In this document: positions 9,001-58,322 of the stretch, in pieces
How positions within the stretch are numbered: the first letter of the stretch is position 1
How the letters are laid out: each line of letters opens with the position of its first letter
NCBI GenBank assembly: GCA_018716085.1
Contig: DVKK01000057.1
Location: 14,570-78,569, forward strand
Length of the DNA: 64,000 bases
Reading direction: 5' to 3'
Source: Candidatus Ornithoclostridium excrementipullorum
Lineage (GTDB): Bacteria; Bacillota; Clostridia; Christensenellales; UBA3700
Position numbers and translations under genes: made by a program
Notes under the pieces: model-generated
Databases searched by the model: none
What the model saw: only the letters and a program-made list of their open reading frames with translations
Told to the model about the DNA's origin: nothing

Positions 9001-12000
9001 GATAGCTTTGAGCGGCTCGGTCACGTTCGGCGAAAACGGCGGGATCGCCTTCGTCGACGCGGACGGCGACGAATATTTGCCCGTCAACGTAGTGCTCGCC
9101 GACGACGGAACGCTCGGAGGATACGTTTTCGAGCTGCGCGACGTCGTGTTTACGCACAATAACTATATCTGGGATTCCGGAGTCGTGACCGATATCCCGT
9201 CGTCCTATTCCGTCGAAGACGGCGCAAAGGGCGACCGCAGTCTGTATATCATAGAACCGAAAACCATTATCGTTTCCGCGGATTCGTTCTCGGATAAGAC
9301 TTTCGACGGGGCGTTCTCGCTCCGCGTGAACGACAGCGGCATTCAGGGCGAATACGTTTCGATCGGCGACTTGGGAGGACTCAACGCCTCGCTGGGCGGC
9401 GTTTACGGCCCCGCCTCGATAATCCCGTACGTGTCGGGAGTGACGTTCGATAAGACCGCGCTCAATCCCGATACCACCGCCGACAACTACAGAGTGGTCT
9501 GCGCCGACGGCGCGCAGGCGCTGGAACTGACGGGCTTCACGGTGAGCACGGGCAGCGTGTTCACGGCGGAGAGATCGGCGGGAGGATACAGGCTCGGATT
9601 CGGAAAACTCGCGGGATTCGATTTCCTGTTCGCGGCGAAGGGCATGACCGCCGAAAACAGAGCGGCGATCACCGCGGGACTTGCGGGAACGCTCGCGACG
9701 GGCGAGCCGTGGAGCGAAACGACATACGACGCGGCGGGCGCGTTTGCCGCGCTCAACGAAGCTCTCGCCTCGCTGTTCGATATACGGCTCAACAATTCCG
9801 CCGACGCTCTCGCGCTCGACGGCGAATACTTCTTCAACGACTTCCTGTGGTCCGAACAGACGGACGGTATGGGCAGAAAGTATTATGCGCTTACGTTCTC
9901 GTTCACGGGCGCGGCGGGCTACGACCGCGACTTCGCGACCGACAGATACTCTTTCACGCTCAAAGGCAAGACCCCCGACGTCGAGGGCGCGCAATATATA
10001 GCGTCGACCAATACTTCGCTGACGTCGTCCGAGCTGGGCGAAGGACAGCTTTCCGCCGAGAACTCGCAGACGGGCGTTGCTATCTCCGACGCCGAGGGAC
10101 TGCTCGATCTGCTGAGGTCGGGAGGCGAAGGCCATCTCACCGCAGATATCTACGGATTCGATCCCGCGGGAGAGGAGATATCCTTTGCGGGCACTCTGTA
10201 CGGCAACGGACATACCGTACAGCTTGCGCCGAGCGAGCTTGCGGGAGTTTCCGCAGGAGGGTATAAGGTATACGGCATGCTTGCCGCGGTCAACTCGGGC
10301 ACGATCCGCGATCTGACCGTAAAGGTGCTTGCAGACGGCGAGATGATCCTCGACGAGGGGTCGGTATTCGGCGCGGTCGGCTACAATTCGGGCACGATCG
10401 AAAACGTCGGGGTGGAAATAGTCGCGCCTCTCAGAGTATCGGGCGCCGCGTACGTCGGCGGTATCGTCGGATACAACGCCGCGGGAGGCACGATCTCTTC
10501 GAGCGGCGTCACCGTCTCAGCAGACGTATACCTGACGGACGGCGAAGGGGCGGTCTCCGGCGTGTTCGGAGGTATTGCGGGACTTGCGGCAGGCACATTG
10601 GAGCGCGTTTCGGTAAGAACGACCGAGGATTTGTATCTTGCGGGCGCAGGCGGCGCCGACGGCAGAACGCCCGTGACGATAACCGTTTCCGCCGCGGGAG
10701 GCGGCGGGGTGATCGGCTCCGGTTCGGGCGCAGTCGCAGACGGCGTTATCGCCGCGACGACGCGGCTCGACGGCGTCAACGGCGTTCTCGGTTCGGGCAG
10801 CGCTGCGGTGAGCGGCGTGTACGCCTACTCCGCCGAAGGGCTTGGTATAGACGGAGAGATCCTCGATTCGACCGAACTTACGATCCTTGCCCCGTACACC
10901 GACGGCTTCATTTCGTACAGGTTCACGGACAGATCGGATTACGAGACCGACGGAGCGAAGCACAACGAGATAGGTTCTTCCGAAGAGAGGAATATGTCGC
11001 TGTACAGGATATACGACGACTCCGACGGAGAGAAGATAGCAATAGAGGCGATAGCGCCGGCGGGCAGATTTGTCTGGGAGGGCTACGGACTCAGCTACCG
11101 CAGCGAACTTATCGACGGCAACGTGGGCACTTCCGCCAACAGGATAGTGGCGGTGTTCGCCGTCGGCGCGTCCGTTGCGCAGCAGTACGAGGGCACGGAC
11201 GCGTTCACGGGAGGAGTAGACGCGTATACGGCGGCGTTCGGCATCATAGGTTCGACCGTAGTCGCGGGTACCGCGTCCGGTGTCAAAGAAACGGTCTACA
11301 ACGGAGAGATACAGACATACACCGTTACGCTCACGGTCACCGAACCCGACGGTTCGACTCGTGAAGAGCAGCTCAGCGTGCAGGGCACGGACGCGGGATA
11401 TTATTCCAGGTCGTCGGTCGAAGGCGTCATCAGCGGCGACAGCGACACTTACGGAGACGTCACGTTCGATATCGACAACCGTACGGCGGTGACGGTCGTC
11501 GGAGGGGAGGGGACGGTGTCCGACGGCATAGCGTTGATAATATACCCGAAGGCGGCGGACGATCGTTCGGCAGTCAAATATTACGATACGACCGACGCGG
11601 CGACGCTCACGCTTACGGGCGCGGGAGATACGGATACGGTGTCCGGAGGCAGATATCTCGACGCGCAGGGCGCTTACGCTCACGACGTCGACACCGCGGT
11701 CGCGGCGGCGTTCGTCAATGCCGATACGGCGGTGAGAAACGTGATAGCCGACGCGGAAGGCCGCTTCTATACGCTCGTTGCCTCGGTAGAGGGCGACGGG
11801 CAGCAGACTCGCGTCGTATATAAACTGCAACCCGCGGAGATAGAAACCGAGGACGGCACGGCGCCGTTCGGACTCGATACCGATCTCACCGCTTACAGCG
11901 CCGCGCAGATCATGAGAGCTTATGCGAAACTCACCGACTGGGCAGAACTCGAGAACGCCGCGGCTCAGCCCGGATCCGATATCGATATCGGCGCATACGT

Positions 12001-35057: not shown

Positions 35058-35501
35058 GAGAAATGGTTAGCGTAAGACAACCGGCACGGAATAAAAAGTA
35101 AAAAAGGCGCGCGAATGCGTCTTTTTTCATTTATCCGCGCGCCGACATCCGTGCGGGGGGAGAATATCGTCGCCGTCCTGTCTGACTTTGCGCGGATGCC
35201 GGACTTTGCGTGCGCGACGGATCGCGGAAAACGCGACTTGCGGAAATACGGAAAAAGCGGGTACATATCGCAAAAATCCGCGCCGCGGCCGCAGAAACGC
35301 GTATTCGGAGGCGCCGCGGGGGCGGCGTAAGGAAGCGCTTCGGAATAAGACCTCGATCCGGGCGGAGCAATGTCGCGCGGTTGACCGCGCATTTATGCGG
35401 AGCGATGCGGCGGCGGTCAAAAAATGACGGAAGAGGCGGCAAGTTGCTTTATTTTTGCGCGCATATATGGTATTATATTACAAATGACATCGGAGAGGCG
35501 T

Positions 35502-36416
35502 ATGTTCAAAGATTTTTTGCAGATGAAAGGCGTGACGAAACGGCAGTTGGAAACGCTGCTCTCTTCCGCCGAGGAGATGAAACGGAGGATAAAGTCGAAA
35601 GACAAGTTCTCCGACGAACTGAAAGGGAAGATCGTCGCGACGCTTTTTTACGAAAACAGCACCAGGACGCGCACGTCTTTCGAAGACGCGTGCAAGTATC
35701 TGGGCGCGGCGGTGGCAAGTCTTGACGTCGCCACTTCCAGCGTTCAGAAAGGAGAGTCGCTCGTCGACACGGCAAAGACGATCGAGGCGATGGGGACCGA
35801 CGCGATAGTAATAAGGCATTCGGTGTCGGGCGCGCCGAAACTGGTCGCCGACAGCGTGGACATTCCCGTTATCAACGCGGGCGACGGTCTGCACGCTCAT
35901 CCTACGCAGGCGCTGCTCGATCTGTTCACCGTCAGGGAGCATTTCGGCAAGGTCGAAGGACTGACGGTCGCCATTATCGGGGATATCAAACACAGCCGCG
36001 TCGCGCGCAGCAATATGGAAAGTCTTACGACCATGGGCGCGACGGTCAAGGTGTTCGCGCCTCCGACGATGCTGCCGATGGGCATAGAGAGGATGAAGTG
36101 CGTCGTCTGCCGCACGATAGAGGAGGCGTTCGTCGGTACGGACGCCGTCATGGGACTGCGTATACAGCTCGAACGTCAGCAGACGGGGCTGTTCCCGAGT
36201 TACGGCGAGTACAGTCGGTTCTTCGGGATAAACGCCGAGCGCATGAAACTTGCGAACAAGAGCGCGATAATAATGCACCCGGGTCCCGTCAACAGAGGCG
36301 TTGAACTGGCTTACGACGTATTGGATGCGGACTGCTGTCGCAAGGACGAGCAGGTCGCCAACGGCGTGGCGGTGAGAATGGCGCTGCTCAAAGCGATATT
36401 GGAGGAGAAAAAGTGA
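35502..36416 (+). CDS. pyrB: Aspartate carbamoyltransferase catalytic subunit
   Basis: Start at MFKDFLQMKG (GGAGAGG RBS). Contains F.E.STRTR.SFE and HPTQALLD. Confidence 0.9.
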   Translation: MFKDFLQMKGVTKRQLETLLSSAEEMKRRIKSKDKFSDELKGKIVATLFYENSTRTRTSFEDACKYLGAAVASLDVATSSVQKGESLVDTAKTIEAMGTDAIVIRHSVSGAPKLVADSVDIPVINAGDGLHAHPTQALLDLFTVREHFGKVEGLTVAIIGDIKHSRVARSNMESLTTMGATVKVFAPPTMLPMGIERMKCVVCRTIEEAFVGTDAVMGLRIQLERQQTGLFPSYGEYSRFFGINAERMKLANKSAIIMHPGPVNRGVELAYDVLDADCCRKDEQVANGVAVRMALLKAILEEKK

Positions 36417-37678
36417 TAAAGATCACGGGAGCCGACGTATTCGGCAAAAAGACGGACGTTTTGGTTGACGGAGACAGGATAAAGGATATCGGCGACCTCG
36501 GCGGCAAGTACGCCGACGCGGAAGTCGTCGACGCCGACGGATTGGCGCTTCTTCCCGCCTTCGTGGATATGCACGTGCATCTGCGCGAGCCGGGGCAGGA
36601 ATACAAAGAGGACATAGAAAGCGGCAGCCGCGCGGCGGTCGCCGGAGGTTTCTCCGCGGTATGCTGTATGCCCAACACAAAGCCTGTGACGGACAACAAG
36701 TATATCGTAAAATACGTAAAGACCCGCGCGGAAGAGGTCGGACTTGCCAAGGTATATCCGATCGCCGCGGTGACCGTGGGGCAGGAAGGCAAGACGATCA
36801 CCGAGATGGGCAAGCTCAAAGAAGCGGGAGCCGTTGCGTTTTCGGACGACGGCAGACCGGTCGAAAACGCGCAGACGATGCGCGTTGCCATGGAGTACGC
36901 AAAGCAGTTCGACGCGCTGATCATCAGCCACTGCGAGGATATTTCTCTTGCGGCGGGAGGCGTGATGAACGAGGGCTACACGGCTTCGGAGGCGGGATAT
37001 CGCGGAATAACCCGTGCCGGCGAAGAGGTCATGGTTGCGCGCGAGATAGTGCTCGCCGACGCGCTCGACACAAAAGTACACATCGCCCATATCAGTACGA
37101 AAGGCAGCGTGCGGCTCATCGCCGACGCAAAGCGCGCGGGGATAAAGGTCAGCTGCGAGACCTGTCCGCATTACTTCGCCGCCACCGACGAGCTGTGCGC
37201 AGGGGGAGATCCCAACGCAAAGATGAATCCGCCTCTGCGCGAAGAAGAGGACAGAAAGGCGATCGTCGAGGCGATAAAAGACGGTACGGTCGACGCGATA
37301 GCGACCGATCATGCGCCGCACGCCGCGCACGAGAAACTCTCGTTTGCCGACGCGGCGAACGGTATCTGCGGATTGGAAACGTCGTTCGCGCTCGCATATA
37401 CGTATCTCGTCAGAAGCGGAGAGATAACTCTGGAAAGGCTGTCCGAATTGATGACCGCGGGACCCGCCGCGCTGGTCGGTATCCCGTGCGGCAAGATAGA
37501 AAAGGGCGGACTTGCGGATCTCGTGCTCGCGGATCTGAACGAGAAATATACGATAGATCCCGACAAGTTCTTCTCCAAGGGCAGGAACACGCCTTTCGGC
37601 GGAAGAGAAGTCTACGGCAAAGTCCGCATGACAATGGTAAACGGAAAGATCAAATACAAGGACGGAAAAATATGCTGA
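36413..37678 (+). CDS. pyrC: Dihydroorotase
   Basis: DMHVHLREPG, and DHAPH near the C-terminus. The start overlaps the pyrB stop. Confidence 0.9.
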   Translation: MIKITGADVFGKKTDVLVDGDRIKDIGDLGGKYADAEVVDADGLALLPAFVDMHVHLREPGQEYKEDIESGSRAAVAGGFSAVCCMPNTKPVTDNKYIVKYVKTRAEEVGLAKVYPIAAVTVGQEGKTITEMGKLKEAGAVAFSDDGRPVENAQTMRVAMEYAKQFDALIISHCEDISLAAGGVMNEGYTASEAGYRGITRAGEEVMVAREIVLADALDTKVHIAHISTKGSVRLIADAKRAGIKVSCETCPHYFAATDELCAGGDPNAKMNPPLREEEDRKAIVEAIKDGTVDAIATDHAPHAAHEKLSFADAANGICGLETSFALAYTYLVRSGEITLERLSELMTAGPAALVGIPCGKIEKGGLADLVLADLNEKYTIDPDKFFSKGRNTPFGGREVYGKVRMTMVNGKIKYKDGKIC

Positions 37679-38574
37679 TCGACAGACTTATCGACAAGAT
37701 CAAAGAGACGGACAACCCGTCCGTTGCGGGACTGGATACCTGCGTGGACTATCTTCCCGACGAAACGCGGGAGAAGTGCGAGACGCTTTACGACGCGGCG
37801 AAGTATATAACGGATTTCAACTTCGCGCTGATCGACGCGCTCAAAGACGTGGTCCCCGCCGTCAAGGTCCAGGTGGCTTATTACGAGATGTACGGCGTGG
37901 AGGGCATGAGAGCGTTTTCGGATACGCTCGCTTACGCGCGTCAGCACGGGCTGTTCACGATAGCCGACGTCAAGAGGAACGATATCGGAAGCACGGCTTC
38001 GGCTTACAGCAACGCCTATTTGGGCGAGACGGTGCTCGAAGGAAGCGCGGTCACGCCGTTCGAGAGCGACTTCATAACGGTCAACGGCTATCTCGGGACG
38101 GACGGAGTGAAACCGTTCGTAGAGGATTGCAAAAAGAACGACCGCGGGATATTCGTCCTGGTCAAGACTTCCAACCCCAGCGGAGGAGAATTGCAGGACA
38201 GGCTGATGGACAACGGCAAGCCGCTGTACGAAAACATGGCGGAATTGGTTGACGGATGGGGCGAAGCTCTGCGCGGAAAATACGGATATTCGAGCGTCGG
38301 CGCCGTCGTCGGCGCCACTCACAGAGCGCAGGCGGAGGCTATCCGCAAAGCGCATCCGCATCTGTTCTTCCTGATACCCGGATACGGCGCTCAGGGAGGC
38401 AAGGCGGACGACCTGGCGGTCTGTTTCCGCGACGGCATCGGCGGCATAGTCAATTCCTCGCGCGCCATTCTCACCGCTTACAGAAAACCGCAGTATGCGG
38501 GCAAGGCGTTTGACGAGGCGGCAAGGCTTGCGGCGATCGCGATGAGAGAGGATATCAACAAGTGCATAAAATGA
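37672..38574 (+). CDS. pyrF: Orotidine-5'-phosphate decarboxylase (long, type 2)
   Basis: Start at MLIDRLIDKIKE (ATG at 37672, overlapping the pyrC end). Contains FTIADVKRNDIGSTA. The upstream part of the track ORF is an out-of-frame overlap with pyrC. Confidence 0.85.
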   Translation: MLIDRLIDKIKETDNPSVAGLDTCVDYLPDETREKCETLYDAAKYITDFNFALIDALKDVVPAVKVQVAYYEMYGVEGMRAFSDTLAYARQHGLFTIADVKRNDIGSTASAYSNAYLGETVLEGSAVTPFESDFITVNGYLGTDGVKPFVEDCKKNDRGIFVLVKTSNPSGGELQDRLMDNGKPLYENMAELVDGWGEALRGKYGYSSVGAVVGATHRAQAEAIRKAHPHLFFLIPGYGAQGGKADDLAVCFRDGIGGIVNSSRAILTAYRKPQYAGKAFDEAARLAAIAMREDINKCIK

Positions 38575-39335
38575 AGGACCGCAAAGCCGAGGTCGTCCGC
38601 AACGAACGCGTCGCCGCGGACGTGATGAAGATGACTTTGAAGTTCGGCGATCTGCCCCCGATCATAGGAGGACAGTTCGCGCACGTCAGACTGCCCGACG
38701 GCGCGCACGTATTGCGCAGACCGTTCTGCATATGCGATTTCGACGCGGAGAAAAAGACCGTCGATCTGTGTTATGCCGTCGTGGGCGGCGGTACGAGAGT
38801 GCTGGCGGACGTCAAAGAGGGCGAAAAGCTCGACGTGCTGCTTCCTCTCGGCAACGGATACGTACCGGTCGGAAAGAAGATAATGCTTATCGGCGGAGGT
38901 ATGGGCAGCGCCGTACTGCCCGCCGTGATCACCGCTTTCCCCGACAGAGAATATTCCGTGTTTCTTGGCTTTTCGGACGCGTCCAAAGTCGTGCTTGCCG
39001 ACGAGCTGAGAGCAAAGGGTGCGAAGGTCACGCTTGCTACGGACAACGGGAGCGCGGGAGTCAAGGGCTACGTCGCCGATATAGCCGAAGCCGCCGTCGC
39101 CGCGTTCGGACCCGACGAGATATTCTGCTGCGGGCCCGAGATAGTCTACAAGATATTGGCGAAGAAATTTGCGGATTCGGACGTTCCCGTCAAGATATCG
39201 CTCGAACAGCGCATGGGGTGCGGGATAGGGGCTTGCCTCGTCTGCAACTGCCGCGTAAAGCGCGGTGACGGCGAAGAATATCTGCGCGTATGCAAGGACG
39301 GTCCCGTATTCGGGCTGAAGGAGGTCGTGCTGTGA
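38571..39335 (+). CDS. pyrK: Dihydroorotate dehydrogenase electron-transfer subunit
   Basis: FAD/NAD-binding fold with the C-terminal 2Fe-2S motif CGIGACLVC...C. The ATG overlaps the pyrF stop. Confidence 0.85.
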   Translation: MKDRKAEVVRNERVAADVMKMTLKFGDLPPIIGGQFAHVRLPDGAHVLRRPFCICDFDAEKKTVDLCYAVVGGGTRVLADVKEGEKLDVLLPLGNGYVPVGKKIMLIGGGMGSAVLPAVITAFPDREYSVFLGFSDASKVVLADELRAKGAKVTLATDNGSAGVKGYVADIAEAAVAAFGPDEIFCCGPEIVYKILAKKFADSDVPVKISLEQRMGCGIGACLVCNCRVKRGDGEEYLRVCKDGPVFGLKEVVL

Positions 39336-40240
39336 ACTTATCGGTGGAGATAGCGGGAGTCAAATTCAAGAATCCGATCATCGCCGCGAGCGGCACTTTC
39401 GGATTCGGCGCGGAGTATTCGGAGTTTTATCCTCTGTCGTCGCTCGGAGGCATCTGCACGAAGGGACTTACGATCGCAAAAAAAGAGGGCAATCCTCCGC
39501 CGAGAGCCACGGAAACGTACGGCGGGATGCTCAACGCCGTGGGTTTGCAGAACCCGGGGATAGAACACTTCCTTGCGACCGATGACAAGACGCTCGCGAA
39601 CGAGGACGTCGTCGTGATCGCAAACGTGGCGGGCTCGACTACGGAAGATTACATAGCGATAGGCGAGAGGATCAACGACGCCAACGCGCAGATGGTGGAA
39701 CTGAATATCTCGTGCCCCAACGTAAAGGAGGGCGGCATGGCGTTCGGAGTGCTGCCCGAGAGCGTGGAGCGCATCACCGCGGCGGTGACCAAGGTGTGCA
39801 GGAAGCCCGTCATCACCAAACTGTCGCCCAACGTCGCCTGTATCGCGGACAACGCCCGCGCCGCGGAGGCGGGAGGCGCGGCTGCGGTCTCTCTGATAAA
39901 TACGCTGTCCGGAATGGCGGTCAACTGGAAGACGCGCCGACCGATACTCGCCAACAACAACGGCGGACTCAGCGGACCGTGCGTTAAGCCCGTCGCGCTG
40001 AAAATGGTCTGGGACTGTTACAATGCGGTCAAGATCCCCATCATCGGACTGGGCGGGATCGCGAGCTGGACGGACGCTTTGGAATTCATTATCTGCGGCG
40101 CACGCGCCGTGCAGGTAGGGACCGCGAATTTCGCGACGCCGACTGCCGCTTACGATATAGCGCGCGGTTTGGAAGAGTACGTTCGCGGCAACGATATCGA
40201 TATCAACGACCTGGTCGGCACGCTGATCCTCAACGGCTGA
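39332..40240 (+). CDS. pyrD: Dihydroorotate dehydrogenase B catalytic subunit
   Basis: The GTG start overlaps the pyrK stop. Contains VEIAGVKFKNPIIAASGTFGFG, NISCPN and GGLSG. Confidence 0.9.
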   Translation: MNLSVEIAGVKFKNPIIAASGTFGFGAEYSEFYPLSSLGGICTKGLTIAKKEGNPPPRATETYGGMLNAVGLQNPGIEHFLATDDKTLANEDVVVIANVAGSTTEDYIAIGERINDANAQMVELNISCPNVKEGGMAFGVLPESVERITAAVTKVCRKPVITKLSPNVACIADNARAAEAGGAAAVSLINTLSGMAVNWKTRRPILANNNGGLSGPCVKPVALKMVWDCYNAVKIPIIGLGGIASWTDALEFIICGARAVQVGTANFATPTAAYDIARGLEEYVRGNDIDINDLVGTLILNG

Positions 40241-40263
40241 CGGGCGAAAAAGGAGTTTACATT

Positions 40264-40854
40264 ATGATGACAACGGAAGAGGCTTTGGAGTATTACCGCA
40301 AGAGCGGGGCTATCCTCAAAGGGCATTTCAGACTGACTTCGGGCAGACACGCCGACACCTATATGCAGAGCGCGAAAGTGTTCGTCGATCCCGCTTGCAG
40401 CGAAAAGCTGTGCGCGGCTCTGGTCGAGAAACTCAACGCCGCGGGCGTAGAAGCAGACATGGTCATATCGCCTGCCATCGGCGGTATACTGATGGGATAC
40501 GAAGTGGCGCGCCAGATGGGCAAACCCAATATTTTCGCCGAGAGAGAAAACGGCGAGATGACTCTGCGCCGCGGCTTTTCTTTCCCCGCAGGGACCCGCT
40601 TCGTGGTCACCGAGGACGTGGTCACGACGGGAGGTTCGGTCAAAGAGGTCGTCGCGCTCGTCCAAAGACTGGGCGGCAAGGTAGCCGCCGTGGCTTCGCT
40701 GGTGGACAGGAGCAACGGCAAGGTGGATTTCGGCGTGAAGTTCGTCAATCTCATAAGTATGGACATCGTTTCTTACGAACCCGACGACTGCCCGCTGTGC
40801 AAAGAGGGTAAACTCGAACTGGTCAAGCCCGGTTCGAGAGTATTTGCCAAATAA
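40264..40854 (+). CDS. pyrE: Orotate phosphoribosyltransferase
   Basis: GHF.LTSGRH and the PRPP loop VVTEDVVTTGGS. Confidence 0.9.
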   Translation: MMTTEEALEYYRKSGAILKGHFRLTSGRHADTYMQSAKVFVDPACSEKLCAALVEKLNAAGVEADMVISPAIGGILMGYEVARQMGKPNIFAERENGEMTLRRGFSFPAGTRFVVTEDVVTTGGSVKEVVALVQRLGGKVAAVASLVDRSNGKVDFGVKFVNLISMDIVSYEPDDCPLCKEGKLELVKPGSRVFAK

Positions 40855-41669
40855 TGTACGCTTTGCTCGACAGGGCATATTCGTCGCTGCGCGGCATGAC
40901 CGACTTCGAGCCCGACTTCGGGATAGTTTTGGGCAGCGGTCTTTCCTCCGTCGCGGACAGAATGGACGTGAGATGCCGCATACCGTATGCGGAGATAGAC
41001 GGAATGCCTGTCTCCACGGTGCAGGGGCATACGGGCGTATTGCTTCTCGGCACGTTCGGCGGGGCAAAGGTCGCCGTCATGCAGGGCAGAGTCCATTATT
41101 ACGAAACGGGGAACGCGGCGCTGTCCGTACTTCCCGTAAGGCTTCTGATACGTATGGGGGCGAAAGCGGTGATCCTGACCAACGCCGCGGGCGGAGTGGA
41201 TCCGTCCTACGATACGGGCGATATCATGCTCATCCGCGATCATATCTCGCTTGCGCCCAACCCTCTCGTCGGAGCCAACGACGACAGATACGGTCCGCGT
41301 TTCCCCGATATGACGGACGCATACGATCCGCAGCTCCGTAAGACCGCGGAAAGCGCGGCGCAGGATCTGGGGATCGCGCTCAAAGAGGGCGTGTACATAC
41401 AGTTTACCGGACCGAGTTTCGAGACTGCGGCGGAAGTCGCGATGGCGCGCGCTCTCGGCGCGGACGCCGTCGGTATGAGCACTGCGATAGAAGCGGTCGC
41501 GGCAAGACATATGGGAGCAAAGGTGCTGGGGTTTTCGTTTATAAGCAACAAGGCCTGCGGATTGAACGACGAACCGCTCTCGCATCTGGACGTACAGAAA
41601 GAGAGCGCGCGGGTCGCCGACAAACTCGCCTCGCTCATAGAAGAGACCGTGCGGCGCGCGGAGGTGTGA
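40854..41669 (+). CDS. punA: Purine nucleoside phosphorylase (PunA/PNP family 1)
   Basis: GIVLGSGL, STVQGHTG, GR.HYYE and MSTA.E. The ATG overlaps the pyrE TAA by 1 nt. Confidence 0.85.
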   Translation: MYALLDRAYSSLRGMTDFEPDFGIVLGSGLSSVADRMDVRCRIPYAEIDGMPVSTVQGHTGVLLLGTFGGAKVAVMQGRVHYYETGNAALSVLPVRLLIRMGAKAVILTNAAGGVDPSYDTGDIMLIRDHISLAPNPLVGANDDRYGPRFPDMTDAYDPQLRKTAESAAQDLGIALKEGVYIQFTGPSFETAAEVAMARALGADAVGMSTAIEAVAARHMGAKVLGFSFISNKACGLNDEPLSHLDVQKESARVADKLASLIEETVRRAEV

Positions 41670-41671
41670 AG

Positions 41672-42955
41672 ATGGAACTCAGGTTTTGCAACGCGCTGAT
41701 ATGGGACGGAGAGAAACTCTTTCACGGGGAACTGCGCACGGAAGGCGACAGGATAAGTTACGTTTCGCCGGTGTCCACTCTCGATTACCGCAACTGGGAT
41801 CGGGAGATAGACTGCAAGGGGAATCTGCTGATGCCGTCTTTCAAGAACGGGCATACGCATTCTCCTATGACGTTCCTGCGCTCGTTCGCCGAGGATCTTC
41901 CGCTGAAAGAGTGGCTGCACGAAAAGGTCTTTCCCGCCGAGGATAAGCTGACCGACGAAGACTGCTACAAACTGACCAAGCTGGCGGTCGCCGAGTATTA
42001 TTCGGGAGGAACGACCTGCTGCTGCGAGATGTACGGACATACCCGCGCGGTGGCAAAGGCGCTCGCCGACAGCGGTATGGCGGCGGTGGTCACGGACGGG
42101 ATACTCGACTTCGACGGCACGCCCGAGGAGATCGAGAGAAAGATAGATTCAAGCGTGGAATTTTATAAAAATTTCCCTGCCCGTGTGCGTTACGGACTGT
42201 CTATACACGCGCAGTACACTTGCTCGGAAGCCACGCTGAGAGCGGTGAAGCGCGCAGCGGACAAGTACGGATTCCCTCTGCTAGCGCATATGAGCGAAAC
42301 GAGAGTAGAGGTCGAGTCGTGTATCGGACAGACGGGGAAAACTCCCGTGGAATACCTATACGGGCTCGGGCTGTTCGAGAACGGCGGCGCGGGGTTCCAC
42401 TGCGTACACGTGACCGATCGTGAGATCGACCTCATGGCGGAGAACGGGGTGGCGGCGGTCACCTGCCCTTGCAGCAATCTCAAATTGGCAAGCGGCGTCG
42501 CGCCCGTTGCGAAAATGGCTGCGCGCGGCGTAAAGATAGGGATAGGTACGGACGGCGCGGCGAGCAACAACGCTCTCGATATGTTCCGAGAAACGTATCT
42601 GGCGTCCGTTTTGCAGAAGTACCGCGAAAACGACGCCGCGGCATTCGGCGCCGAACAGGCTCTGCGGGCGGCGACTTCGGCGGCATCGTTCGGTTTTTGC
42701 GGCGCGGAAGGCTTGAAAAGGGGCGCTTATGCGGATATGGTGATGATCGACCTCGGGGCTCCCAACATGAGACCTCGCAACGACGTGATAAACAACGTCG
42801 TTTACGCCGCGGGCAGACAAAACGTGCTCATGACGGTGTCGGGGGGCAGGATAGTTTACGAGAACGGCGTACCCGACGTGGGCGAAGATCTGAACGCGCT
42901 GTACGCCGACTGCGAGGATATCGCCGAGAGGATAGCACGTGAGACCGCAGGATAA
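41672..42955 (+). CDS. Amidohydrolase, MTA/SAH deaminase-like (MtaD family)
   Basis: NGHTHSPMT metal motif, and HMSET/GTDG patterns of the chlorohydrolase/deaminase family. An alternative GTG start at 41666 overlaps the punA stop. Confidence 0.7.
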   Translation: MELRFCNALIWDGEKLFHGELRTEGDRISYVSPVSTLDYRNWDREIDCKGNLLMPSFKNGHTHSPMTFLRSFAEDLPLKEWLHEKVFPAEDKLTDEDCYKLTKLAVAEYYSGGTTCCCEMYGHTRAVAKALADSGMAAVVTDGILDFDGTPEEIERKIDSSVEFYKNFPARVRYGLSIHAQYTCSEATLRAVKRAADKYGFPLLAHMSETRVEVESCIGQTGKTPVEYLYGLGLFENGGAGFHCVHVTDREIDLMAENGVAAVTCPCSNLKLASGVAPVAKMAARGVKIGIGTDGAASNNALDMFRETYLASVLQKYRENDAAAFGAEQALRAATSAASFGFCGAEGLKRGAYADMVMIDLGAPNMRPRNDVINNVVYAAGRQNVLMTVSGGRIVYENGVPDVGEDLNALYADCEDIAERIARETAG

Positions 42956-52351: not shown

Positions 52352-52963
52352 TTACAGATCGCCTTTACCGTCGTCTTGCGTACGGGACGCGTTTCCGTCC
52401 TCGGACAGGGACGTCGTATCGTGCGCCGATCCCTGCTCGGACGCCGTCGCGGTCTGCCTGCGCATTCCGAAACGGTTCAGATAAGCCTTCGCGGCGACGG
52501 TGAGAGGTACGCCGAGAGGATAGATCACGATGGATTGCGAGGCGATCAGAAACGCTACGTTGAGCATATATACGTATTCCTGCTGTCCGTATGCGAGCCG
52601 CCATATCCCGGGCAGAAGAAAGGCGTTGAGCAAGACCGGGAACAGACCTCCCACGAACAGCGACAGTTTGAAATTCCTGACCGTTTTTCCGACGAGCAGG
52701 GTGAGCGCTGCCGCCGCGAGAGTGACCAGACTGCCCAGGATTATGTCCAGAATGGCGCCTCCCGCCAGCCAGTTGGCGATAAGGCATCCGATAAACAGAG
52801 CGGGGACCGCTTCGGGGAATACGAGCGGAAGCATCGTCAAAGCTTCCGACGGACGGAATTGGATCTCGGAGATCGCCACGGAAGCCGTGACGTAGGTGAG
52901 CGCTACGTAGAGCGCCGCGAAAACGCCCGCGCGGCAGAGCCGCACGACATGTTGCCTCTTCAT
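52352..52963 (-). CDS. queT: Queuosine-precursor transporter QueT (ECF S-component type) with acidic C-terminal tail
   Basis: Start at MKRQHVVRLCRAGVFAALYVALTYV (ATG at 52961-52963). About 5-6 TM segments. A preQ1-I-like element lies directly upstream. Confidence 0.7.
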   Translation of the reverse strand: MKRQHVVRLCRAGVFAALYVALTYVTASVAISEIQFRPSEALTMLPLVFPEAVPALFIGCLIANWLAGGAILDIILGSLVTLAAAALTLLVGKTVRNFKLSLFVGGLFPVLLNAFLLPGIWRLAYGQQEYVYMLNVAFLIASQSIVIYPLGVPLTVAAKAYLNRFGMRRQTATASEQGSAHDTTSLSEDGNASRTQDDGKGDL

Positions 52964-52971
52964 AAAATGTA

Positions 52972-53012
52972 CCTCGGTTTTTTTATTCGGAAGTGTTTGC
53001 CGAAAACCTTCC
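52972..53012 (-). promoter_or_regulatory. preQ1 class I-like riboswitch (translational, masks the SD)
   Basis: On the minus strand: GGAAG-GUUUUCGGCAAACA-CUUCC-GAAUAAAAAAACCGAGG. That is a 5-bp P1, a loop with UUC...ACA, and an A-rich tail. The tail CCGA can pair with loop UCGG (pseudoknot) and abuts the GAGG SD. Compare B. subtilis AGAGG-UUCUAGCUACAC-CCUCU-AUAAAAAACUAAGG. Confidence 0.6.
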
Positions 53013-53018
53013 TTGCCA

Positions 53019-53047
53019 AGGATATCACATCGTATCGGGAATTGCAA
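53019..53047 (-). promoter_or_regulatory. queT promoter
   Basis: On the minus strand: TTGCAA (53042-53047), 17 nt, TATCCT (53019-53024). The predicted TSS coincides with the 5' end of the riboswitch. Confidence 0.45.
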
Positions 53048-53153
53048 CAAAACGTCGTCGGTTTTTGCGGCGGGAGCGTTTCCGCGCGGCGGAAAAAGCC
53101 TCGATCATAAGGTAAAATCAATGTAAACATTGCGCGGCGGGGCGGTTTTAATA

Positions 53154-53182
53154 TGGACACCGCGGCGGCGCTGTGTTATACT
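53154..53182 (+). promoter_or_regulatory. Promoter of the SCP2-like / ADH-like / queH operon
   Basis: TGGACA (53154-53159), 17 nt, extended -10 TGtTATACT (53174-53182). The palindrome AATGT-aa-ACATT at 53120-53131 lies upstream. Confidence 0.45.
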
Positions 53183-53204
53183 GAGAACGGATCGGAGAAT
53201 AATC

Positions 53205-53705
53205 ATGAATGCGGAAAACAACAAGAAACTGAAAAACGCCGTGCTGTCTTTGCTCATCTACTATGTGGGCAGGGCGTGCAGGAGCTGTTACAAATACGAC
53301 GAAACGCTTGCCGCGACTTTCGGCGCGCTTCCCGACGGGTTCGTGTTCAGGATAGGCGCTTTGCCCGCCGGAGCAGGCCTTACCATACGCAAGGACGCCG
53401 ACGGGATAACCGTGCTCGACCGAAGCGACGCGCACGCTTCTCCCGATCTCGATATCCGTTTCAAAAACGTGGGGACCGCAAAGATGTTCTTCAACGGCTC
53501 CAAGTCGCTGGCGGCGTGTTTTTCCCAGTCGCAGACGGTGACGGAAGGCGACACTTCGCATATAATGACGCTGTCGCGCATATTCGACGCGGTAGCTTCT
53601 TATATTTTGACCAAAGGGATACTGAAACGCAACGGCAGAGAACTTCTGCCGCGCAGAGTCAGCGCGCACAAGATGCGTTTCAAGACGTTGATCGGGAGGA
53701 TATGA
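53205..53705 (+). CDS. Small SCP2-like (sterol/lipid-carrier fold-like) protein, function unknown
   Basis: 166 aa. The segment DLDIRFKNVGTAKMFFNGSKSLAACFSQSQTVTEGDTSHIMTLSRIF resembles the SCP2 pattern (..A...G.l...GD......l..lf). Its stop overlaps the next start. Confidence 0.45.
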   Translation: MNAENNKKLKNAVLSLLIYYVGRACRSCYKYDETLAATFGALPDGFVFRIGALPAGAGLTIRKDADGITVLDRSDAHASPDLDIRFKNVGTAKMFFNGSKSLAACFSQSQTVTEGDTSHIMTLSRIFDAVASYILTKGILKRNGRELLPRRVSAHKMRFKTLIGRI

Positions 53706-54892
53706 TGAAAGGCGACAATCTCTATTACGAGGTGCCCGTCGCTCCCAAGATAGTGGGGGGCGAGGGTTGTTTCGAAGCGATGGGCGAGGAACTGCGCGCG
53801 ATCGGAGCCGTATCGGCGATCCTGCTGTGCGACGAAGCGGCGGAGAAGGCGCTCACCGCCGAGAAAGTCCGAATAGCGCTCACCGCGGCGGGAGTCAGAA
53901 CGGGCGCCAATTATATGGTCGCCGACGGCAACGCCGCGTTTTCTTCGGTATACGAACTCCGCGATATTTACAGGATCAACAACTGCGACTCGATAGTCGC
54001 CTGCGGCGGCGAGGACACGGTCAATACCGCGAAGGCTCTAAGGATGCTGCTTTCTTCGCAGGCGGTCACGTTGGACGAGATCGCAGGCGTCGACGTCGCC
54101 AAATCCAAAGTCACGGTGCCGTTTGCCGTTATCCCCGCAGGCGTGGATACGTCTTCCAGCGTTACGCGCAGCGCCTTTCTGAAAAAAGAGGACGGAGAGG
54201 GACGCGAATTCCGTTCGTCGCTCGGCAAAGCGGACGTATGCGTCGTGGATGCGGGTACCGATCTCGGCGCAAGTTTCCGCAGTATCGCGGTCGGAGCGGT
54301 GGAGGTGCTTGCGGGAAGTATCGAAAGTTTCGTGTCGCTCAATGCGGGCAAACTGACCAAGTGTATGGATCTTTTCGCGATGCGTGCGATCAGGGACAGC
54401 CTCGACAAGGCTTTGGAGGATCCGGGCGACGCGACCGCTATGTGGCAGCTCAGGCAGGCGGGACTGTTGTCCGGACTTGCTTACGATACCGCGGGAGCGG
54501 GACTCGTGCGCGCCATGACCAACGCTTTGACGGTCGTCTGCGGAGGCAGACGCGAGGAATACTCGGGCATAGTGCTGCCCGAGGTGCTCAGGTTCAATCT
54601 CGAAAGCCGTAAAGACGATTATGCCGAGGCTCTGTATTACGTCGTGGGCGACGACAGGTTCGCTTCCACTGCCGCGGACATGCGCGCGGAGACGTTTGTG
54701 TCCACGGTATCCGATCTGACCGCAAGGCTTTATAAAGAGGCGGGCGTAGCCCGCACTCTCGGGGAGCGAGGCTTGAAGGAGGAGGACGTTTCTTCCGTGG
54801 CGGCATCCGCCGCGGGGGACTATTCCCTGATGACGAATCCCGTCCGCGCTACGGCGGAAGACATAGCCGAAATATTGAGGAGATTGCTGTAA
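53702..54892 (+). CDS. Iron-containing alcohol dehydrogenase-fold protein, apparently lacking the metal-ligand residues (paralog 1)
   Basis: Gly-rich loop CGGEDTVNTAK (compare GGGSxxDxxK). The regions aligning by eye to FucO MDALTHAIE and HGMAH...PHG read VEVLAGSIE and RAMTN...EYS. Confidence 0.65.
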   Translation: MMKGDNLYYEVPVAPKIVGGEGCFEAMGEELRAIGAVSAILLCDEAAEKALTAEKVRIALTAAGVRTGANYMVADGNAAFSSVYELRDIYRINNCDSIVACGGEDTVNTAKALRMLLSSQAVTLDEIAGVDVAKSKVTVPFAVIPAGVDTSSSVTRSAFLKKEDGEGREFRSSLGKADVCVVDAGTDLGASFRSIAVGAVEVLAGSIESFVSLNAGKLTKCMDLFAMRAIRDSLDKALEDPGDATAMWQLRQAGLLSGLAYDTAGAGLVRAMTNALTVVCGGRREEYSGIVLPEVLRFNLESRKDDYAEALYYVVGDDRFASTAADMRAETFVSTVSDLTARLYKEAGVARTLGERGLKEEDVSSVAASAAGDYSLMTNPVRATAEDIAEILRRLL

Positions 54893-54893
54893 T

Positions 54894-56096
54894 ATGAACA
54901 CGGAGATCAAAAAATTGCCGAAGACGTTCACGTTCTCCTGCCCTACGAAACTGCTCGGCGGGAGCAACGCTCTGGACAATCTTCCATTCGAGATGAAAGA
55001 AAAGGGCGCCGCGCGTCCGCTCGTCGTAATGGACGAATACGCGCTTCGCCTCGGATATTACCGCGAACTCAAACGGGTGATGAAAAACGACGACGTGGTC
55101 ATAGTCGGCACATACGCCAAGGCGACGGGCGAGCCGAAGGACTGCGACGCCGTGGTCAAGCGATTCAAGGAACTGGACTGCGACTGCATAGTCGGGCTCG
55201 GAGGCGGCGGAGTCATAAACGTGGCTAAGGCCGCGAAGCTGATGTTGGGGCAGAACAGAAGCGCTTTCGCGTCGTTCGAGGGCGACAGCGTGGCAAGACA
55301 ACAGCATTACGGCAACGAGAACATACCTCTGTTTTTGTTGCCGTGCGATATGCCGGGAGGTACGGAGGCTACGACGAGGGCGAGGATCGTGGACGAAGGA
55401 GCCAATCTGTTCTACAATTTCGATTCGCGCCGCACCTGCGCGACTGCCGTGATACTGGACAAGAGGCTGACCGACAGGATGCCCGCTACTGCCATGGCGG
55501 TTTCCGGATTGGGCGCGCTGGCAATGGGCATAGAGGGATTTGTAGACAACCCCGACAACATGATAGCCCAGTCCTACGCCACAGCCGCCATAAATTCCGT
55601 CATGACCATGTTGCTGCCGGCGATGCTGCACAACGGCAACGTGCGGTACAAACTGACGCTTTATACCGCGATAATCAATGCGGGGGTGGCGTATTATAAC
55701 GTAAAAGGCAGCATAGTCCGCGATATCGCGACCGAGCTGAGCATGCGTTACAAGATAGATTCGCAGCAGGCGTTGCAGATAGTGTTCCCGTATTATTACG
55801 AAACGAGAATGAGCGACGAACGCATATTCAAAGGGATACTCATGCCGCTCGCGGGCGAGGACGTATACGCTTCCACGAATTTCAACGCGAGAGACAAAGT
55901 TGCTCTGGACAGGATCAAAGAGTTCTGGGAAAAGGTGACCGCGCTCGCGGATATCCCGACCAAGCTGTCCAAAGTGGGAGCCAAACAATCCGACTTCCCG
56001 TCGATCGCTCAGGCGGTCATAGAAAGATACAGAGGTTCGGCGAAAGAGTTCAGCAATTATACTTACATCACCGAACTGTTGGAGAAGGCGTTTTGA
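54894..56096 (+). CDS. Iron-containing alcohol dehydrogenase-fold protein, apparently lacking the metal-ligand residues (paralog 2)
   Basis: GLGGGGVINVAKAAK loop. SGLGALAMGIEGF sits where TGMDALTHAIEGY is expected (D to G, H to M). No HxxxH motif. Starts 1 nt after paralog 1. Confidence 0.65.
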   Translation: MNTEIKKLPKTFTFSCPTKLLGGSNALDNLPFEMKEKGAARPLVVMDEYALRLGYYRELKRVMKNDDVVIVGTYAKATGEPKDCDAVVKRFKELDCDCIVGLGGGGVINVAKAAKLMLGQNRSAFASFEGDSVARQQHYGNENIPLFLLPCDMPGGTEATTRARIVDEGANLFYNFDSRRTCATAVILDKRLTDRMPATAMAVSGLGALAMGIEGFVDNPDNMIAQSYATAAINSVMTMLLPAMLHNGNVRYKLTLYTAIINAGVAYYNVKGSIVRDIATELSMRYKIDSQQALQIVFPYYYETRMSDERIFKGILMPLAGEDVYASTNFNARDKVALDRIKEFWEKVTALADIPTKLSKVGAKQSDFPSIAQAVIERYRGSAKEFSNYTYITELLEKAF

Positions 56097-56740
56097 ACGC
56101 GGTGAATTACGACGCGCTCGGCGCGAAGATCACGAAAGCTTTTGCCGAGGCGGGGCTGAGACCCCGTCTTCTTTTGCACAGCTGCTGCGCGCCGTGCAGC
56201 ACGCATTGTATCGAGGCGCTCCGAAACTCGTACGAACTCACCGTATTTTATTACAATCCGAACATATTCCCCGAAGCGGAATACGAGAAGCGAGCTTCCG
56301 AACAGCGCCGTTATATTGCGGAGAATATGCCCGGGATCGGGTGCGAGATCGCCGATTACCGTCATTCGGAATTTTCCGAAGCCGTCCGCGGATACGAAAA
56401 CGAGAGGGAGGGCGGCGCGCGTTGCGCAGAATGTTTCCGCCTGCGGCTGCACGCCGCCGCGGAATACGCCGCGCGGCACGGCTTCGAGCTGTACTGTACG
56501 ACGCTGACGGTAAGCCCGTACAAAAACGCCGCCGTGATAAACGCGATCGGCGAGGAGGAGGGAAAACGCGCGGGCGTTAAGTTTTTGCCGTCCGACTTCA
56601 AGAAAAAGGACGGCTATCGGGATTCCGTCGCAAGGAGCGTCGCCGCGGGGCTGTACAGGCAGAACTACTGCGGGTGCGAGTATTCTCTCGCGGAAAGAGC
56701 GTCGGCGGAAAAAGGGAAACGGGCGTCGGAAGGAGTTTGA
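56093..56740 (+). CDS. queH: Epoxyqueuosine reductase QueH (DUF208 family)
   Basis: LLHSCCAPCS...YYNPNI.P..EY..R motifs. The TTG start at 56093 overlaps the upstream stop (TTGA); a GTG at 56102 is an alternative start. Confidence 0.8.
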   Translation: MNAVNYDALGAKITKAFAEAGLRPRLLLHSCCAPCSTHCIEALRNSYELTVFYYNPNIFPEAEYEKRASEQRRYIAENMPGIGCEIADYRHSEFSEAVRGYENEREGGARCAECFRLRLHAAAEYAARHGFELYCTTLTVSPYKNAAVINAIGEEEGKRAGVKFLPSDFKKKDGYRDSVARSVAAGLYRQNYCGCEYSLAERASAEKGKRASEGV

Positions 56741-56749
56741 ATCATCGGA

Positions 56750-56815
56750 ACGCGCGGGATCGCGCTTGTTTTTGCGTTTTTTGAGAAGAATGCGCCGGCT
56801 TTTGCCTCGGCGCGC
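56750..56815 (+). terminator. Two tandem intrinsic terminators after queH
   Basis: GCGCG-ggat-CGCGC followed by TTGTTTTT, then GCGCCG-gcttttgcct-CGGCGC followed by GCTGTTTTTT. Confidence 0.7.
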
Positions 56816-56834
56816 TGTTTTTTGCGTAAAATCG

Positions 56835-56863
56835 TTGGCAAAACGCTCCTTATGATTTATAAT
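56835..56863 (+). promoter_or_regulatory. Promoter of the Wzz-like gene
   Basis: TTGGCA (56835-56840), 17 nt, TATAAT (56858-56863). Confidence 0.5.
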
Positions 56864-56900: not shown

Positions 56901-58322
56901 ATGCAGGAAGAAAACGGTATGACCGTAAAACAGTTCGTAGACATACTCAAAAAAAGCTGGGTGACGATCCTCGTCAGCGTGCTGATCGTGGCGATCGTAT
57001 TCGGATCTTTTCTCGCGATAGTCAAGACCGTCGCGACCGATAGCTATTACCGCGGTACGCTCTATTTCGCCGGCAGCGATTCCAACGATAACAGAGCGAC
57101 GGACATCTCGGGGATAGTTTCGGCGGACAATATTTCCAAGGCTCTCAGAGCTACGGGATATTCCGAGGACGAGATCGCGGGACTTACCGAAACGGTAAGA
57201 GGCGCGATAACCGTTACGCCCGTGGTCCCCGCCGGCGCGCAGGGCAGCGATACCGAATACGTGCCCTCCACTTACACGGTCACGATGAATCCGATCGACG
57301 GCCTTACGGAGAGCGAATGCATATCGGTAGTCAACGCGGTCATGAACCAGTTCGTCAGCGACTACGCGCAATCGGACGGTGCGGTCGGGTCGTCGTTGGT
57401 GATGGTCACTTTCGATTACGACAGTTACGACTATATCCATATAGCGGGAGAGCTGATCGATATCACGACCAACAATATGGAAGTGGTGTCGGACGTGGTT
57501 TCGAGGACGTCGGCGGCAAGCGACAGCTCGCAGAACGCGGTCTTCTCCGCTATACAGGCGAGATTGGAAGGCGAACTTGCCAGACTTCGTACTCTGCAAT
57601 CGTCCATCGCTTATAACGGGACGACCAAGGAGAGCCCTTCGCTTTCCAACGAACAGTACCTCGATCAGGCGGTCACGTCGGCGCAGGCGAAAGTCACGGC
57701 GCTCGAATCAGAGATCGAAAGTTACGAAACTCTTCTCGCTAAGCTTGCTGCGGGCGGTTCGACCGGCGGCGTCGATACGGGAAGCGGTTCGATAATCATC
57801 GACAACAGCGCCCTTTACAATTTCCTCAACCAGAATTATTCCCGTACTCTCGGCGAACTGACAGAGGCGAGAGAGGCTCTTGCGTTGGTGCAGCAGGTGC
57901 AGACGGTATACGGGGAGGCGACCGCATTCGAGAACGCCGACGCAGATACCAAAGCTGCTATGAGGCAGAGCGCGGAAACGCAGCTGAACGCGGCGATCGA
58001 GAACCTTAATTCTCTGTTCGAGGAACTGCGCACGCTACTCAACGATTACAACGGTTATACGGGCTCTTCGACCAAGTCGATATCCGTACTCGCGCCGGCT
58101 TCGCTGATCACGGAAAGCGTACTCGGTACGACGACGATGCTTCTGGTCCTGGTCATAGTAGTGGTGCTGACGGTGTTCTTCGCGTTCATGCACGGAAGAA
58201 AGAAGTATATGCTCGCTCTCGAAGCCGCAAAGGATCGCGAAGATCCTTCCGACGGTACTCCTACCGACGGAAACGGCGGAGATGCGACGGAGGAAACGGC
58301 CGCCGAGCCCGAAAACGCATGA
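56901..58322 (+). CDS. Bitopic two-TM protein with large coiled-coil ectodomain, Wzz/polysaccharide co-polymerase-like
   Basis: The N-terminus VKQFVDILKKSWVTILVSVLIVAIVF resembles the Wzz motif. A second TM segment lies near the C-terminus (TTMLLVLVIVVVLTVFFAF), followed by an acidic tail. Confidence 0.4.
   Translation: MQEENGMTVKQFVDILKKSWVTILVSVLIVAIVFGSFLAIVKTVATDSYYRGTLYFAGSDSNDNRATDISGIVSADNISKALRATGYSEDEIAGLTETVRGAITVTPVVPAGAQGSDTEYVPSTYTVTMNPIDGLTESECISVVNAVMNQFVSDYAQSDGAVGSSLVMVTFDYDSYDYIHIAGELIDITTNNMEVVSDVVSRTSAASDSSQNAVFSAIQARLEGELARLRTLQSSIAYNGTTKESPSLSNEQYLDQAVTSAQAKVTALESEIESYETLLAKLAAGGSTGGVDTGSGSIIIDNSALYNFLNQNYSRTLGELTEAREALALVQQVQTVYGEATAFENADADTKAAMRQSAETQLNAAIENLNSLFEELRTLLNDYNGYTGSSTKSISVLAPASLITESVLGTTTMLLVLVIVVVLTVFFAFMHGRKKYMLALEAAKDREDPSDGTPTDGNGGDATEETAAEPENA

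Follow-up and report, generated by a model that had tools for sequence, protein, structure and literature searches.

QueH-family epoxyqueuosine reductases have been described as stand-alone enzymes, and we know of no physiological reductant or partner protein assigned to them. In the locus studied here, and in every related locus that we found, queH is instead coupled to three partner genes. The locus lies in a 64-kb stretch of contig DVKK01000057.1 of Candidatus Ornithoclostridium excrementipullorum, a chicken-gut bacterium of the Christensenellaceae (the window), where a gene for a 166-aa protein with a predicted SCP2 fold (the small gene), two genes for proteins with the fold of iron-dependent alcohol dehydrogenases (Fe-ADHs; p1 and p2) and queH follow each other on one strand; we refer to these four genes as the cassette. 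QueH loci as such are known, but the coupling of queH to an SCP2-fold partner and two Fe-ADH-fold partners was not found in the literature searched, which yielded no paper linking QueH to proteins of either fold and, as an earlier note on this DNA had said, no described role for such proteins in queuosine (Q) salvage or biosynthesis. The described systems closest to parts of the locus are the group III Fe-ADHs, the regulatory ADH-like protein ErcA, the SCP2-domain accessory factors UbiJ and UbiT and, for the neighbouring queT gene, the type II preQ1-I riboswitches. Our tentative reading, to which we give a probability of roughly 0.45, is that QueH would be the sole catalyst of the cassette and its partners binding or scaffold subunits of one QueH-centred assembly.

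Gene order and conservation of the queH cassette

The four cassette genes overlap or abut (Table 1; coordinates are positions in the window). An ATGA at 53702-53705 joins the small gene to p1, the ATG of p2 comes 1 nt after the p1 stop, and the TTG start of queH overlaps the TGA of p2 at 56093-56096, within ...TTTTGA. The earlier note had described these three junctions together with a promoter-like site ahead of the small gene and a double terminator behind queH; the junctions are borne out by the list of open reading frames (ORFs) and the junction sequence, a consensus scan recovered the promoter, and both terminator hairpins are present with their T runs. Overlapping or abutting genes, one promoter and one terminator pair support the single operon proposed in that note, and the layout indicates that the four genes form one coupled operon. 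Two further promoter-like consensus matches lie inside it on the + strand, at 53538-53566 (in the small gene) and 55390-55418 (in p2), and could allow some independent expression of queH.

Three diverged clades of uncultured Christensenellales/Clostridia share the order small gene, ADH-like gene, ADH-like gene, queH, which occupies at least five different neighbourhoods, as read within ±10 kb of each locus. Clade A occurs in three contexts: beside queT, DegV and TetR genes in L001, L002 and L011-13, as in the window; beside LuxS and RecD2 genes in L003/4; and beside a CDP-OH (CDP-alcohol) phosphatidyltransferase gene in L005. The clade B cassettes (L015-20, L023/24) stand beside DUF2804 and MFS genes, and those of clade C (L025/26) between TrpA with a 1772-aa ORF on one side and a P-type ATPase on the other. 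Identity to the window proteins falls from 52-57% (small protein), 57-62% (p1) and 64-70% (p2) in clade A, through about 41-44%, 34-40% and about 50% in clade B, to about 26%, 26% and 32% in clade C, where the gene order is still intact. Of the nine other loci compared, seven, from clades A, B and C, have a called p2/queH overlap of 4 nt, and a TTG start of queH is read in all seven; the called queH starts of the remaining two (L018 and L023) leave a gap after p2. The end of p2 and the start of queH (56085-56098 in the window) share ...GGAGAAGGCGTTTTGAAC, with the same junction in L001, L002, L003, L005, L015, L020 and L025, and the Shine-Dalgarno (SD) sequence of queH lies inside the last codons of p2; an SD-like GGAG followed by TTGA recurs across all three clades. 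The linkage of the ADH-like subfamily to queH, for which the earlier note had proposed a comparison of gene neighbourhoods, is therefore conserved across these clades and contexts, and the retention of gene order, overlap and promoter over such divergence argues for a shared function.

The cassette promoter, which has an extended -10 TG, is conserved in register across 11 aligned clade A and B loci. It leaves a leader of only about 15-20 nt after the -10 element, and a riboswitch ahead of the cassette itself was rejected because such a leader is too short. Upstream of the -35 element lies a direct repeat that is the sole match in the window at one mismatch or fewer (0.06 expected). In the form (T/G)GTAAA-N5-TGTAA(A/T), it precedes the ATG by 93-100 nt in all QueH cassettes of the three clades, reading TGTAAA-N5-TGTAAA in L001, L003, L011, L012 and L013 and departing from this by one or two mismatches in the other cassettes, and it is absent upstream in the non-QueH relatives L021, L027 and L028. 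Promoter and repeat thus travel with the cassette. The repeat fits the WalR/VicR consensus TGTWAH-N5-TGTWAH (PMC9210968, PMC4168254), which provides a lead to it as a candidate operator. Clade C has a second copy of the repeat (L025:10716-10732), about 84 nt before the P-type ATPase gene, a hint of a small regulon.

A public-assembly collection lists the clade C small protein in 326 blocks. A profile scan of genome contigs with the small-protein alignment found four species only, all of clade A, and a metagenome scan for relatives of the small protein found two loci only.

Table 1. Positions of the queH cassette, its control elements and the divergent queT gene in the window
Feature	Position	Strand	Evidence or remark
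queT	52352-52963	-	S component of an ECF-type transporter for preQ1/Q precursors; Pfam QueT 8.2e-31, above the cut-off; divergent from the cassette
Conserved 41-nt queT leader, GGAAGGUUUUCGGnnAACACUUCCGAAUAAAAAAACCGAGG	52972-53012	-	Resembles preQ1-I
Direct repeat GGTAAA-ATCAA-TGTAAA, candidate OmpR/WalR-type operator	53111-53127	+	Upstream of the -35 element
Cassette promoter TGGACA-17-TATACT, extended -10 TG	53154-53182	+	Consensus scan
Small gene (predicted SCP2-fold protein, 166 aa), cassette gene 1	53205-53705	+	
p1 (Fe-ADH fold)	53702-54892	+	Pfam Fe-ADH 3e-20, ADH_Fe_C 3e-24
p2 (Fe-ADH fold)	54894-56096	+	Pfam Fe-ADH 1e-22, ADH_Fe_C 3e-12
queH (epoxyqueuosine reductase, DUF208), TTG start	56093-56740	+	Pfam QueH 1.8e-64
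Two terminator-like hairpins, each with a T run	56752-56824 (stems 56752-56765 and 56791-56814)	+	Signal scan

Folds and active sites of the four products

The queH product matches PF02677 over its full length at 217.5 bits (cut-off 23.5) and Thermotoga maritima QueH (PDB 7lc5) at 1e-31. The motifs HxCCxPC, RCxxC and YCGC, which are also those of T. maritima QueH, are invariant in all eight cassette QueHs, and the Cys motifs CCxP, CxxC and CGC, which serve the [4Fe-4S] cluster and the adjacent iron, are intact. Neither tgt nor queA was seen among the ORFs scanned in the window.

p1 and p2 share only about 20% identity. Both have the full two-domain Fe-ADH fold, as judged from Pfam and from a sequence search of the PDB, with PF00465 and PF25137 matched at 72.8 and 86.4 bits by p1 and at 80.9 and 47.2 bits by p2, all above the cut-offs. 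We read their metal sites from a HMMER alignment to methanol dehydrogenase (8zrl/8zwd) and from a 31-sequence MAFFT alignment, taking as reference the 8zrl ligands D196, H200, H265 and H279 (the last two also numbered His263 and His277). At these positions p1 has E/G/R/R and p2 has G/M/R/S, and the full Asp/His/His/His set is missing from every p1 and p2 in the three clades; at the same time, all four ligands are intact in the canonical relatives L021_a1, L027_a1, L028_a2 and P0079. The ligand loss that the earlier note had read by eye is thus upheld by profile-HMM and MAFFT alignment to 8zrl, and of the p1/p2 residues it listed (E/G, G/M, R/Y and Y/Q) the first two pairs stand, while the last two become R/R and R/S. 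Across clades, p1 has E, L, K, Q, N or G at the D196 position and R, H or A at the H265 position, the His being retained in p1 of clade B. The H200 position is an invariant Met in all p2 orthologues and in L027_a2, a p2-type paralogue that is paired with a canonical ADH; this Met excepted, the pocket residues of p1 and p2 vary between clades.

The nucleotide motifs GGGSxxD and TTxGTGSE are degenerate as well, and only the GG, together with G.E in p2, persists. In the window, GGGS has become GGED in p1 and GGGG in p2, and TTAGTGSE has become AGVDTSSS in p1 and CDMPGGTE in p2. The Gly-rich loop that the earlier note regarded as kept is therefore partly present in the window, but not among the orthologues, where the equivalent loop reads GMSG, GNYK, GDYK or GRRN; neither motif holds even among the p1 proteins or among the p2 proteins. 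What is mostly retained is the GG of the loop and the Asp that in Fe-ADHs binds the ribose of the adenosine. p1 and p2 are on this evidence predicted pseudoenzymes without metal ligands or nucleotide motifs, and the alignments show no new active site common to them in place of the lost one. The genes are not decaying: the ratio of non-synonymous to synonymous substitution (dN/dS), taken from the least saturated pair (L001 vs L003, dS about 0.7-0.85), is 0.19 for p1 and 0.10 for p2, compared with 0.11 for the small gene and 0.19 for queH, and p1 and p2 are under purifying selection. A neighbour-joining tree places p1 and p2 each on a branch of its own with orthologues from all three clades, and the p2 lineage includes the L027 member that is paired with a canonical ADH.

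The 166-aa product of the small gene has no match in Pfam or NCBIfam. The Pfam SCP2 models gave none for three cassette small proteins (from the window and clade B) at E<=10 and none for eight stand-alone relatives at E<=0.01, and the wider Pfam and NCBIfam searches with those eight were empty too. An exhaustive profile search gathered 214 representatives of the family (clusters at 50% identity) at E<=1e-3, mostly of 150-190 aa, and no Pfam model covers any member among those checked. Searched against the PDB, the family profile matched SCP2 chains and nothing else (E 0.008), and hhalign gave an 87% probability for the match of the small protein to human SCP2. An AlphaFold2 (AF2) model reached a pLDDT of 94.4 when built from a 49-sequence alignment of distant relatives (six close sequences gave 44), and Foldseek with this model found SCP2 folds almost exclusively, with 22 PDB matches at E<=1e-3 and E-values down to 4e-5; the UbiJ-SCP2 structures 6h6p, 6h6o and 6h6n lead, and the putative SCP2s TT1886 and AF1534 are among the matches. 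An SCP2 alpha/beta fold is thus supported by profile search and by the predicted structure, as is the label SCP2-like used in the earlier note, on which Pfam is silent. An Fe-S or redox role for the CxxC of the small protein was rejected, as its cysteines are not conserved across the wider family.

In every context of a stand-alone SCP2-like family member that we examined, an Fe-ADH gene directly follows it, usually a canonical one, and these canonical partners keep all ligands and motifs. In Christensenellales (L021/22; L021:6001-9619) the order is small gene, canonical ADH, the tungsten-type enzyme aldehyde:ferredoxin oxidoreductase (AOR), ThiS and ThiF; in L028:4831-10107 it is AOR, small gene, pseudo-ADH, canonical ADH; L027 has the small gene, a canonical ADH and a p2-type pseudo-ADH before the contig ends; and L029/30 (L030:6989-8678) have the small gene and a canonical ADH alone. 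In two proteins, P0229 and P0204, one of which is Desulfosarcina variabilis 'Aor7', the SCP2-like domain is fused to the C-terminus of AOR. Pairs of a canonical Fe-ADH and a ligand-less paralogue are thus present outside QueH cassettes, at L027:7498-9425 and L028:7627-10107 (the ligand-less member reads Y/M at the first two ligand positions in L027 and G/R/H/S in L028), and catalytic and dead ADHs seem, from these alignments, to be paired recurrently in this subfamily. Both ADH-fold proteins are dead only in the queH cassettes, and queH was seen with only 3 of the roughly 214 family clusters. Since the relatives pair the SCP2-like protein with an Fe-ADH, this pair would be the older unit, and the p2-type dead paralogue probably predates the association with queH; the canonical Fe-ADHs and AOR of the relatives argue for an origin in aldehyde/alcohol redox modules and not in a dedicated Q step. 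We found no description of the SCP2-like family or of the SCP2-like/Fe-ADH/AOR module in the literature, and searches on SCP2 with AOR, or on Aor7, returned nothing relevant.

The queT leader and other neighbours of the cassette

queT stands beside the cassette only in one clade A synteny block, made up of the window, L001, L002 and L011-13. The chance of queT adjacency is about 0.1% for about 1800 genes, a number estimated from the 1.8-Mb chromosome of L013, and this improbability argues that this particular QueH serves queuosine. The 'divergent queuosine locus' of the earlier note accordingly holds for the clade A block, but not as a general property of the cassette.

The 41-nt leader of queT is identical in six loci save for two loop positions, while its flanks diverge, and it ends at a GAGG SD sequence, 7-9 nt before the ATG. 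It can form a short stem with an 'AC' before the 3' strand of P1 and an A-rich tail, and its loop UCGG can pair with CCGA beside the SD sequence, giving a potential P2 that reaches the SD; the sequence would thus allow an H-type pseudoknot that occludes the SD. The nested fold has a z of -0.96, which is not significant, and the six near-identical copies give no covariation. Rfam gave no match to preQ1-I (RF00522) at the gathering score on the window and none at E<=10 on 601 nt or 81 nt, and no preQ1 or other family on nine related loci; the only Rfam match was RnaG at E 0.98, which we judged to be due to chance. The preQ1-I-like riboswitch that the earlier note had placed on queT was thus not confirmed by Rfam at either threshold. 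The leader shares with the type II preQ1-I riboswitches that control queT (PMC11625349) its place at the 5' end of the queT mRNA, a short P1, the 'AC', the A-rich tail and a potential SD-reaching P2, and differs from them in having no RF00522 match and a loop longer than those of the Bsu and Tte aptamers. A preQ1-I riboswitch is on these features a plausible identity for it.

Downstream of queH, a gene for a 473-aa protein (56901-58322, +) with transmembrane segments at both ends and a long coiled coil between them follows in clades A and B (31% identity). It was considered as a fifth member and rejected, as it is absent from clade C and has a strong promoter-like site of its own past the terminators (TTGGCA-17-TATAAT, 56835-56863). 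The protein has no significant Pfam match, and its clade B orthologue has a faint match to Wzz (E 1.5). PADLOC matched none of the six proteins to a defence system. Very large ORFs are found upstream of the cassette in the window and in loci of clades B and C: one of 4513 aa in the window (29-13570, +), without a Pfam match at 1e-5, one of 3059 aa in clade B, running off the start of L015/L016, and the 1772-aa ORF of clade C (L025:1408-6726), the last two without a Pfam match on record. Elsewhere in the window, a pyrimidine-related run of genes (35424-42955, +) encodes aspartate/ornithine carbamoyltransferase, OMP decarboxylase, dihydroorotate dehydrogenase B with its Fe-S subunit, a phosphoribosyltransferase, a nucleoside phosphorylase and an amidohydrolase.

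Possible function of the cassette and comparison with known systems

In the reading that we prefer, the four products would most likely work as one assembly around QueH. QueH, a [4Fe-4S] epoxyqueuosine reductase, would convert epoxyqueuosine (oQ) in tRNA to Q, and it alone of the four has an intact active site. Its partners, the SCP2-fold protein and the Fe-ADH-fold pair, are under selection but have lost the metal and nucleotide sites of alcohol oxidation, and would act as non-catalytic binding or scaffold subunits, perhaps by holding or presenting the substrate, a reductant partner or a regulatory ligand to QueH, or perhaps by stabilising it. They may have been recruited from an older module in which an SCP2-like protein comes ahead of a working Fe-ADH and is in some cases accompanied by a dead ADH paralogue, a [4Fe-4S]/tungstopterin AOR or both. 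Expression would start from the conserved sigma-70-type promoter, probably activated through the upstream direct-repeat operator, and would not be under riboswitch control. The earlier note had offered both non-catalytic binding and a dedicated queuosine step; the former is also what we favour, the latter fits poorly with relatives that pair with canonical Fe-ADHs and AOR. Several points weigh against our reading. QueH is reportedly active by itself in T. maritima and upon expression in E. coli, so that an obligatory partner is not expected; queT adjoins the cassette in only one synteny block; tRNA-bound oQ is not the small hydrophobic ligand that an SCP2 fold implies; and the operator looks like those of WalR, whose usual targets are genes of the cell envelope.

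An alternative that we consider unlikely is a small-molecule pathway. In it a QueH-family enzyme, recruited to the pathway or shared with it, would reduce a free substrate that is hydrophobic or carries a diol, such as salvaged epoxyqueuine or epoxyqueuosine, or an epoxide of a quinone or lipid. On the model of the SCP2/Fe-ADH/AOR modules, with their aldehyde and alcohol substrates, this compound would be carried by the SCP2-like protein and bound by the two pseudo-ADHs. The closeness of the small protein to lipid-binding UbiJ, the ability of the Fe-ADH fold to bind diols and alcohols, and the finding that all other family members examined sit with small-molecule oxidoreductases or are fused to AOR are consistent with such a pathway, as are the WalR-like operator and the envelope-type membrane protein conserved downstream in clades A and B. 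However, QueH is canonical throughout its sequence, with 217 bits to Pfam QueH and every motif kept; queT and its preQ1-like leader adjoin the cassette in clade A; apart from the Met of p2, the pockets of p1 and p2 are not conserved from clade to clade; and we know of no activity of QueH on a free substrate. A more specific proposal, also improbable in our view, has the SCP2-fold carrier and a dead Fe-ADH-fold heterodimer deliver a free, non-tRNA substrate (salvaged epoxyqueuine or epoxyqueuosine, or another hydrophobic epoxide) to QueH, or couple QueH to its physiological electron source, which would make the cassette a new kind of QueH system. If either variant were true, a common adaptor module would be at work with more than one [4Fe-4S] reductase: with AOR in the relatives and with QueH here.

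That the four genes are co-transcribed without a shared pathway, queH being a housekeeping passenger on the promoter of partners that, for example, sense or buffer aldehydes, alcohols or NAD(H), seems to us doubtful. The pairing of SCP2-like protein and Fe-ADH is older than queH in these loci and independent of it, only 3 of about 214 family clusters are seen with queH, and p1 and p2 find their closest NCBIfam match, at scores far under the cut-off, in a regulatory protein, ErcA; all of this would suit a passenger. Against this, the order is kept in three clades and at least five contexts with partners that are 26-32% identical to those of the window in the most distant clade, the 4-nt overlap and the TTG start (seven of nine and seven of seven loci) are much more than is usual for passengers, and both ADH paralogues are non-catalytic only where QueH is present. 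The idea of the earlier note that p1 and/or p2 are still enzymes, using metal-independent or unusual chemistry on the cyclopentenediol or epoxide of oQ/Q to make or remove a Q derivative, is the least probable of those weighed here. The superfamily has metal-independent members, among them maleylacetate reductases, and the adenosine-ribose Asp and the GG of the loop are mostly retained in p1 and p2, but at all four ligand positions the residues change from clade to clade, and the variation of GGGS and TTxGTGSE within each paralogue leaves no common active site.

A conserved and translationally coupled set of partners offers a direct experimental handle on the reductant and partners of QueH. 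The cassette is also a clean natural case of two predicted pseudoenzymes held under strong purifying selection beside a real enzyme, in host lineages that are uncultured but abundant gut Clostridia. Moreover, it reveals an unannotated family of putative SCP2-fold proteins (about 214 clusters at 50% identity, without a Pfam model), whose association with Fe-ADHs and tungsten AOR in anaerobes, in the loci examined, is relevant to how gut and sediment bacteria metabolise acids, aldehydes and alcohols.

Compared with known systems, cassette QueH is like T. maritima QueH in its full-length family match and its CCxP, CxxC and CGC motifs, and differs in the residue after CCAP, which is Cys in the cassette and Asp in T. 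maritima. p1 and p2 have the two-domain fold of group III Fe-ADHs (FucO, methanol dehydrogenase 8zrl/8zwd, DhaT), but all four metal ligands and the nucleotide motifs of these enzymes are gone. Their top NCBIfam match is ErcA, at 157 and 96 bits, scores that lie far under every curated NCBIfam cut-off (for example, 157 vs 550 for ErcA). The closest structural matches of the small protein are UbiJ and UbiT, accessory factors of ubiquinone biosynthesis that are likewise small non-enzymatic partners encoded beside oxidoreductases, some with Fe-S clusters, and one member of the small-protein family has been named UbiJ by JGI. At the same time, the sequence identity is only 13-15%, there is no Pfam SCP2 match, the small protein has extra helices (TM-score normalised to the query about 0.47), and its partners are Fe-ADH-fold proteins, AOR or QueH instead of Ubi enzymes; to our knowledge, the host lineage, being anaerobic Clostridia, would not be expected to synthesise ubiquinone. 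The SCP2-like/Fe-ADH/AOR modules of Christensenellales and other anaerobes resemble the cassette in having an SCP2-like gene followed by an Fe-ADH-family gene and, in some cases (L027, L028), a dead ADH paralogue. They differ from it in keeping at least one canonical ADH, in having AOR or nothing in the place of QueH, and in being without the conserved direct-repeat operator; judged from its genes, the QueH cassette looks like an offshoot of this older SCP2/Fe-ADH(/AOR) module.

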